Assembly: GCF_056712565.1 (NCBI RefSeq)
Contig: NZ_CM160072.1
Strand: one strand, 5' to 3'
Length of the DNA stretch: 64,000 nucleotides
Under the pieces are notes generated by a model. The model was given only the letters and a program-made list of their open reading frames with translations. It was not told the origin of the DNA and made no database searches. Made by a program: the position numbers and the translations under genes. Below, piece after piece: positions 17,286 through 18,016 of this stretch. Position 1 is the stretch's first letter, and each line of letters opens with the position of its first letter.

Positions 17286-18016
17286 TTCCTCATCGATATC
17301 GAATAAGCACTCGTCGCAGAATTCTTTATCGAGTGAGAGCCTCTGTTCAAGGACGCTTCTTTTTTTTGTTGCAACGTGCACATCCCTTCATCTTTCCGCG
17401 CCTTTGTGACCTCGTGATTTGGGGTACATGGAAAATGGGCGTAGCAAGCCTCAGCTAGATAACTAACCGTAATAAAAGGGCTTTTCTGCGAGCAATGTAA
17501 GAGAAGGATAACTAGGCAGGTTGCAAGAAAGATAATCGTTTTGATAGATCAGTTTATCGATATTGATCGTTAGTGCCGATCGATAAGAAGTGCGGAAACG
17601 TTAGACTCACCTCTGTTGCTCCATCATGATGATGGGGCTGTTGGCCCTCGAATCTATCTGTCTATTAGCATCGGCATGACAAACACCATTTGTTTCCACA
17701 ACAAAAGACAATAGAAAAGTACATATGTACAAAAAGTGTGATTTATTCTGTCACTTCAGTACTTCCTTTCGCCTAAGTTTGCCCGTAATAATTCCCCGTG
17801 CAGTACTATTGTTGCGACATAACAACATGAATTACATGGTAATAATAGATGTTTTCCTCTGCTGATTCCTGTAAGGATCATGACTCCATACGACATCATT
17901 TTTAATTTTATACAGTTCAAAAAATCTACATGTGTCACAAATAATTTTACATTTGATAATGTATAGTTGTCACATGACAAGTTGATTATCATTCTGTGTA
18001 GACAAGGAGAACTGTT

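Follow-up and report, generated by a model that had tools for sequence, protein, structure and literature searches.

The known Dam/OxyR switches amount to a handful, namely those of agn43, gtr, opvAB and Mu mom. In the gtr system of phage P22, each GATC-bearing OxyR half site contains two GATCs 13 bp apart, and the half sites are placed 32 bp from one another, a spacing as for reduced OxyR (Broadbent et al. 2010, PMC2909390). The gtr region has four GATCs in two pairs, and its half site C lies over the -35 element, giving two alternative OxyR positions. In agn43 (flu), which OxyR represses, three GATCs fall within a single OxyR tetramer site; the operator encloses the -10 hexamer, and its GATCs form part of the transcript. 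The opvAB locus of Salmonella is horizontally acquired, is controlled by Dam and OxyR and alters the LPS (PMC4856963). In Mu, the OxyR or 'MomR' site is situated upstream of the promoter region of mom, for which phase variation is unreported (PMC2909390).

The locus described here lies in a 64,000-nt stretch of DNA (contig NZ_CM160072.1 of assembly GCF_056712565.1; hereafter the window) that also contains an agn43 operator, at 10381-10427 on the plus strand, whose half sites ATAGAATAAAACGAT and ATCGTTACTATCGAT are 32 bp apart, with the -10 hexamer TAGAAT within half site 1, and whose GATCs start at 10393, 10412 and 10425 (gaps of 19 and 13 bp). On the same island, a second set of three GATC (Dam) sites occupies 17547-17581, starting at 17547, 17565 and 17578 on the plus strand with gaps of 18 and 13 bp, or 13/18 when read in the orientation of the minus-strand operon discussed below. 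A reading made from the letters alone (the sequence-only reading) had drawn attention to this cluster, to the closeness of its spacing to that of agn43 and to its position about 430 bp upstream of the mtnK operon. Its coordinates, spacings and quoted cores (GATCGTTAGTGCCGATCG in the cluster and GATCGTTACTATCGATCG at agn43) proved exact when verified against the window, and the distance from the cluster to the mtnK start codon at 18017 was measured as 436-470 bp. GATC triplets within 36 bp occur six times in the window and are hence not rare as such. The arrangement of 13 plus 17-19 bp is found only at the cluster and at agn43, and no other pair of GATCs in the window is spaced exactly 13 bp. 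When the 217 GATCs of the window are placed at random, 0.014 triplets of the 13 plus 17-19 type are expected per window against the two that occur, and the arrangement is therefore not a product of chance.

All three GATCs of the cluster fall in the arms of OxyR-like half sites (consensus ATAGnTnnnAnCTAT-like). Half site A, ATCGTTAGTGCCGAT (17566-17580), has a GATC in each arm and is promoter-distal for the minus-strand operon, while half site B, ATCGTTTTGATAGAT (17535-17549), has one arm with a GATC and is promoter-proximal; each agrees with the consensus at 7 of 10 positions, and the two are 31 bp apart from start to start. Half sites were scored by their matches to the 10 OxyR consensus positions, a score of at least 7 arising at 0.27% of positions and the GATC-N9-GATC pair by itself supplying part of it. 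Paired half sites of this quality 31-32 bp apart are present in the window only at the cluster and at agn43 (scores 8/8, 32 bp).

The resemblance extends across the described systems. The GATC-N9-GATC design is common to half site A, half site 2 of agn43, half sites A and C of P22 gtr and half site 2 of Mu mom, and the spacing between half sites, at 31 bp in the cluster and in Mu mom and 32 bp in agn43 and P22 gtr A-B, corresponds to about three helical turns. Mu mom has a geometry identical to that of the cluster, with GATCs spaced 18/13 and, in the Mu sequence inspected, half sites ATAGAAAACGACGAT and ATCGGTAATACAGAT (scores 7/7) 31 bp apart. Half site A of P22 gtr, TGATCGGTAACAACGATCAAT, is identical to the cluster sequence CGATCGGCACTAACGATCAAT at 17 of 21 positions. 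However, the cluster has three GATCs rather than four, of which half site B carries one, and half site C is missing. As in agn43, the three GATCs belong to what would be a single tetramer site, in which one half site carries GATCs 13 bp apart in both arms, and 15 of 18 bases are identical there. In contrast to agn43, where the spacing is 19/13 and the half sites are 32 bp apart, the cluster has 18/13 and 31 bp, a different target gene and no flanking homology, and it lies about 155-190 nt upstream of its ORF with no promoter found inside.

A scan of 17200-18100 for sigma-70 promoters and terminators gave nothing at the operator and plus-strand candidates only near mtnK, and an Rfam scan of 17000-18100 gave no match at E<=1. 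A weak candidate -10 hexamer for the minus-strand operon, TACATT (17494-17499, minus strand), was picked out by eye from alignments of related loci and was missed by the consensus scan. The operator lies upstream of any plausible promoter, as do gtr A-B, where binding activates, and the operator of Mu mom, where it represses.

The gene that the operator faces is a remnant. Locally, the window is 100% identical to E. coli FDAARGOS_497, for which RefSeq gives the order GTPase, agn43, DUF905, DUF932, antirestriction, JAB/RadC, DUF987, YeeU antitoxin and truncated cbtA, followed by mtnK-mtnA-aldolase-transporter. The truncated cbtA toxin gene, as annotated in FDAARGOS_497, retains its first 33 codons (17179-17277, plus strand), and its 3' end is a deletion junction. 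From this junction, codons 1-38 of a 55-aa small ORF of the CxxC...CxxC type run on the minus strand (17277-17391, ATG at 17391). ST131-type genomes have the same sequence as the window from 17277 rightwards; to the left of this point they carry, on the minus strand, the intact 55-aa ORF (MKRCARCNKKRSVLEQRLSLDKEFCDECLFD..., with Cys at positions 4, 7, 25 and 28) and, directly after it, an 84-aa fragment of a family-2 glycosyltransferase (GT2). The intact Cys4 ORF is located, for example, at 5947-6114 on the minus strand of locus L002. In the deletion, which took the glycosyltransferase with it, cbtA was broken at codon 33 and joined to the small ORF at codon 38. The stub left in the window reads MKGCARCNKKKKRP* and is frameshifted by an extra A, the run at 17360-17367 being T8 (A8 in the coding direction) where ST131-type genomes have T7, a second inactivating lesion beside the deletion. 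With GT2 deleted and the stub frameshifted, the operator is an orphan relic that has nothing left to regulate.

Elsewhere in E. coli the operator is a relic as well. The operator and leader were present in 1,073 of 5,426 complete E. coli genomes, all at >=95% identity, and were never annotated in these carriers. Searches of the complete E. coli genomes in near and distant modes recovered no intact small-ORF/GT2 operon, all 1,073 of 1,073 carriers having the relic. As the relic is shared by descent, the near-identity of the operator within E. coli is uninformative with regard to selection. The 55-aa Cys4 ORF is itself unannotated in RefSeq E. coli genomes, yet is conserved in about 15 genera, and the 799-bp region upstream of mtnK has been described as ORF-free, with GATC and OxyR unmentioned (PMC12632272).

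Homologs of the small protein were identified in Lelliottia, Enterobacter, Citrobacter, Klebsiella, Kluyvera, Yokenella and other Enterobacterales, and scanning one genome per species with peptide patterns added 22 further small-ORF loci. Residues C4, C7, C25 and C28 are invariant across about 15 genera, and the protein matched no family in Pfam, NCBIfam or PHROGs. A full-length GT2 of 312-329 aa follows 6-80 nt after the small ORF in about 20 of 25 loci. Intact modules are present, for example, in Lelliottia jeotgali CP018628 (about 554.9-571.1 kb) and in Yokenella regensburgei ATCC 49455. The best family match of this enzyme is NF007482, the model of the LPS glucuronosyltransferase WaaH (YibD), at 141-157 bits, where the cut-off is 423 bits and K-12 WaaH scores 633; it shares 29% identity over 223 aa with K-12 WaaH (E 3e-32), and it matches GtrB-like PHROGs weakly and in the N-terminal part only (E 1.7e-13). 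Given scores below the cut-off and this level of identity, GT2 is a distant paralog and not an ortholog of WaaH, which is an LPS inner-core glycosyltransferase, and it is probably an LPS-core-modifying enzyme.

The module also has defined limits. In many genera, genes for RadC, DUF987, YeeU and CbtA are convergent to the GT2 module, as in the window. In BLAST comparisons of the window with all related loci, homology starts exactly at 17277 and stops somewhere from 17581 to 17603; counted from the last GATC, module homology reaches 15-22 nt further. The matches to Lelliottia, Enterobacter and Buttiauxella set the outer limit of the GT2 module at 17582-17603, which is also that of the CP4-44-like Ag43 island. 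With these limits, nothing in the distal cargo module of the Ag43 island lies further out than the cluster, and in about 15 enterobacterial genera the small-ORF/GT2 module forms the distal cargo of CP4-44-like islands. Just beyond the boundary, at 17618-17638, is an inverted repeat of 10 nt (GCTCCATCAT/ATGATGGGGC, 1-nt loop) that also occurs in the Citrobacter locus L028 and could be a terminator-less hairpin or a remnant of the island end.

The island is also unusual in its GATC content. Between the agn43 operator and the cluster (10429-17546) there is no GATC over 7,118 bp, the largest GATC gap in the window, and such a total absence between two Dam switches is striking. The roughly 3 kb ahead of agn43 (7332-10392) contain two GATCs, and the next 22 kb contain 4.3 per kb. 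Related islands show weaker depletion, at 3.0 versus 5.2 per kb in Yokenella and 1.9 versus 5.1 in Lelliottia. GATC has been reported to be under-represented in E. coli mobile elements (PMC4659465).

Across the related loci, the three GATCs are the best preserved part of the operator. Of 29 loci, drawn from about 15 genera, 27 carry triplets spaced 13/18 bp ahead of the small ORF, at positions of about -186, -173 and -155 relative to the ATG. Variant spacings are seen in C. freundii (13/19) and in one Lelliottia (13/17), and GATC1 was lost in two of the 29 loci (L013 and L020). The loci were found via the protein, using peptide patterns, and their recovery was therefore not biased by GATC content. 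When the 24 distinct sequences are compared, GATC positions have a majority-base frequency of 0.993 and other operator positions one of 0.726, against values of 0.473 for the 40 nt upstream of the operator and 0.636 for the 60 nt downstream of it; the spacers comprise 13 different N9 and 15 different N14 sequences. The leaders and upstream flanks of different subgroups cannot be aligned, and an 11-nt indel lies directly beside the operator. Near-invariant GATCs set among leaders and flanks that have diverged to this extent mark the Dam sites themselves as the target of selection. There are also hints that the 5' leader is under a length or structure constraint; the distance from GATC3 to the ATG is 154-162 nt in 23 of the 27 loci listed, 134 nt in a Kluyvera-type group and 228 nt in Rahnella.

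Operators of the same type are found in phages. A 20-base pattern derived from the operator consensus and scanned against IMG/VR matched at least 120 contigs, against about 0.2 expected by chance (a rough estimate from the complexity of the pattern and the size of the collection). In 85 of the 120 contigs listed, a gene for the superinfection-exclusion lipoprotein Cor (phrog_1119) lies 60-110 nt downstream. For example, in phi80 (JX871397) a 13/18 GATC triplet at 1548-1582 sits right after the gp23 stop codon and 109 nt before the cor ATG. This placement suggests that superinfection exclusion by Cor may be under Dam/OxyR control. Small unknown ORFs lie downstream in other listed contigs, and 31 of the 120 are unclassified. 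In one viral contig (L035, operator at 10186-10221), a gene for a Dam-like adenine methyltransferase of the D12 class lies 69 nt downstream, possibly a methylase under a methylation-sensitive operator. A -10 hexamer inside half site B, which would permit occlusion of the agn43 kind, was considered as a general feature and rejected, being present in only 11% of the listed phage versions and in one GT2 subgroup.

Taken as a whole, the cluster is probably a Dam-methylation-sensitive switch operator, with OxyR as the most probable binder, that belongs to the minus-strand small-ORF/GT2 operon and has been orphaned in this genome. The switched operon would encode a 55-aa zinc-ribbon-like protein and the WaaH-like GT2. 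Where the module is intact, unmethylated GATCs would allow a tetramer of reduced OxyR to occupy both half sites, 31 bp from each other, and the bound tetramer would shield all three GATCs from Dam, while full methylation would shut OxyR out. Competition between Dam and reduced OxyR for the hemimethylated operator after replication would then give rise to two heritable states of expression and so to phase variation of the small-ORF/GT2 operon, probably with phase-variable modification of the LPS core. The literature searched contained no experimental data on the cluster operator, including OxyR binding. Reports of Dam/OxyR control of cor or of the GT2 operon were likewise not found, which is weak evidence given the incomplete coverage of the literature, and searches of this literature for site lists of unmethylated GATCs in ST131, K. 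pneumoniae or O145 gave nothing relevant.

The operon itself can be compared with those of the described switches. As in the gtrABC loci of Salmonella and P22, the operator stands ahead of a horizontally acquired glycosyltransferase operon that is probably LPS-modifying, but the small-ORF/GT2 operon has neither GtrA nor GtrC, and its GT2 is WaaH-like and not GtrB. It also differs from opvAB, which has four OxyR sites and four GATCs and encodes unrelated proteins. The closest parallel in layout is com-mom of Mu, in which the gene for a small Cys4 protein is likewise followed by that for a modifying enzyme, Mom in the one case and a GT2 glycosyltransferase in the other. The two arrangements are mirrored, however, with the double-GATC half site proximal in Mu and distal in the small-ORF operon. 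Mu Com is a zinc-finger translational activator, and when the small protein was compared with it by hhalign the probability was 11.6% over 8 aligned columns, that is, no detectable homology. The protein also lacks a Pfam family, and the layout is analogous only to that of com-mom, not homologous.

If the operator is functional, OxyR is quite probably the protein that binds it. An alternative that we regard as unlikely is that the operator is genuinely Dam-sensitive but is bound by another host protein, or acts through methylation effects on RNA polymerase or SeqA. Half site B is a poor match to the OxyR consensus in the largest subgroup of related loci (5/10), and the related operators share two conserved boxes, ATTAT after GATC3 and AAATT before it, that the OxyR consensus does not explain, both of which would be in keeping with a different binder. 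Against this, the proven OxyR sites of agn43, Mu mom and P22 gtr share the GATC-N9-GATC half site and the spacing of 31-32 bp, and an operator carried on both islands and phages requires a host factor present throughout the Enterobacterales, a description that OxyR fits.

[quoted passage not shown] Transcription would then come from a plus-strand promoter with the hexamer GATAAT (17531-17536) and read through the operator as in agn43. On the plus strand the half sites do follow the order of agn43 and Mu mom (single-GATC, then double-GATC), and the GATAAT hexamer abuts half site B. However, this hexamer has no acceptable -35 element and was missed by the promoter scan. In E. coli ATCC 25922, where the locus is arranged as in ST131-type genomes and the upstream neighbour is the GT2 fragment WP_000788354, primer extension placed the transcription starts of mtnK 72 and 188/218 bp upstream of the gene and detected none in the fragment 381-709 bp upstream, which spans the cluster (PMC12632272). 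In window coordinates, the published starts correspond to P1 at about 17945 and P2 at about 17799-17829. In addition, 126 bp of upstream sequence suffice for full MtnR/CRP-regulated expression, and all carriers share only about 250 bp (PMC12632272). Because reporter fusions and start-site mapping confine mtnK control to within 126-220 bp of the gene (PMC12632272), the cluster is excluded from it, and mtnK lies outside the switch.

The junction between operator and mtnK is nevertheless retained in two settings, which would be expected if the one served the other. Among the related loci, the operator adjoins mtnK only in E. coli and in one Citrobacter (sp. On2M), whereas across about 15 genera and the phages the sequence on the mtnK side of the operator is unrelated, and the operator is tied instead to the opposite-strand small ORF and GT2. 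Positions 1-5114 of the On2M locus (L028) are collinear with 17277-22392 of the window (92.4% over 5.1 kb), the collinearity spanning the small ORF, the operator and the entire mtnK-mtnA-aldolase-transporter cluster. This indicates that the junction predates the DHAP-shunt cluster or travelled with it.

The sequence-only reading had also proposed that the cluster is a relic of a second Ag43-type control region, and this proposal holds in part. The cluster is a relic, it is a Dam cluster of the agn43 class and it is borne on the island; an Ag43 control region it is not. That it was left behind by a duplicated or ancestral agn43 regulatory region, as the similar GATC spacing and the identical core bases might imply, is more improbable still than control of mtnK. 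Alignment of 17480-17700 with 10330-10560 revealed no similarity beyond a core of about 20 nt (GATCGTTAnTnnCGATCG), and the cluster region has no counterpart of the agn43 -35/-10 elements (TTGCGT-17-TAGAAT) or of the agn43 leader. The neighbours of the cluster are mtnK on the plus strand and the small-ORF stub on the minus strand, with no linked autotransporter gene, and in the loci and contigs examined the related operators precede the small ORF and GT2 or cor, never an autotransporter. Last, a functionless chance clustering of GATCs in an AT-rich intergenic region has a negligible probability, for while close triplets are common enough in the window, this spacing is not expected there, is invariant over about 15 genera amid diverged surroundings, and recurs in phage contigs far beyond chance expectation.

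The reading of the cluster as the orphaned operator of the small-ORF/GT2 operon has consequences both within E. coli and beyond it. In E. coli, the cluster marks the distal end of the Ag43 island, and one in five complete genomes carries the orphaned operator, ST131 and Nissle 1917 among them. It is predicted that the methylomes of ST131, Nissle 1917 and ATCC 25922 would show persistently undermethylated GATCs at this site, without regulatory consequence. More broadly, the 13/18 triple-GATC operator may represent a portable Dam/OxyR cassette placed before surface-changing cargo on enterobacterial islands and temperate phages, a generalisation that we put forward tentatively and hold to be somewhat less likely than its negation. 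The cargo would comprise the WaaH-like GT2 and the FhuA-blocking Cor of phi80-like phages, with variant forms of the operator serving Ag43, Gtr and Mom. If so, phage exclusion by Cor and the other traits of this kind would be phase-variable, and the orphaned copy in E. coli would still form heritable methylation patterns. The shared operator sequence makes the cor genes of phi80-type phages candidate phase-variable genes, and the locus of the small Cys4 protein and the WaaH-like GT2 is a widely distributed, unannotated candidate addition to the Dam/OxyR class. The cluster in the window is a fossil, yet through it a family of candidate epigenetic switches has come to light that appears not to have been described before.
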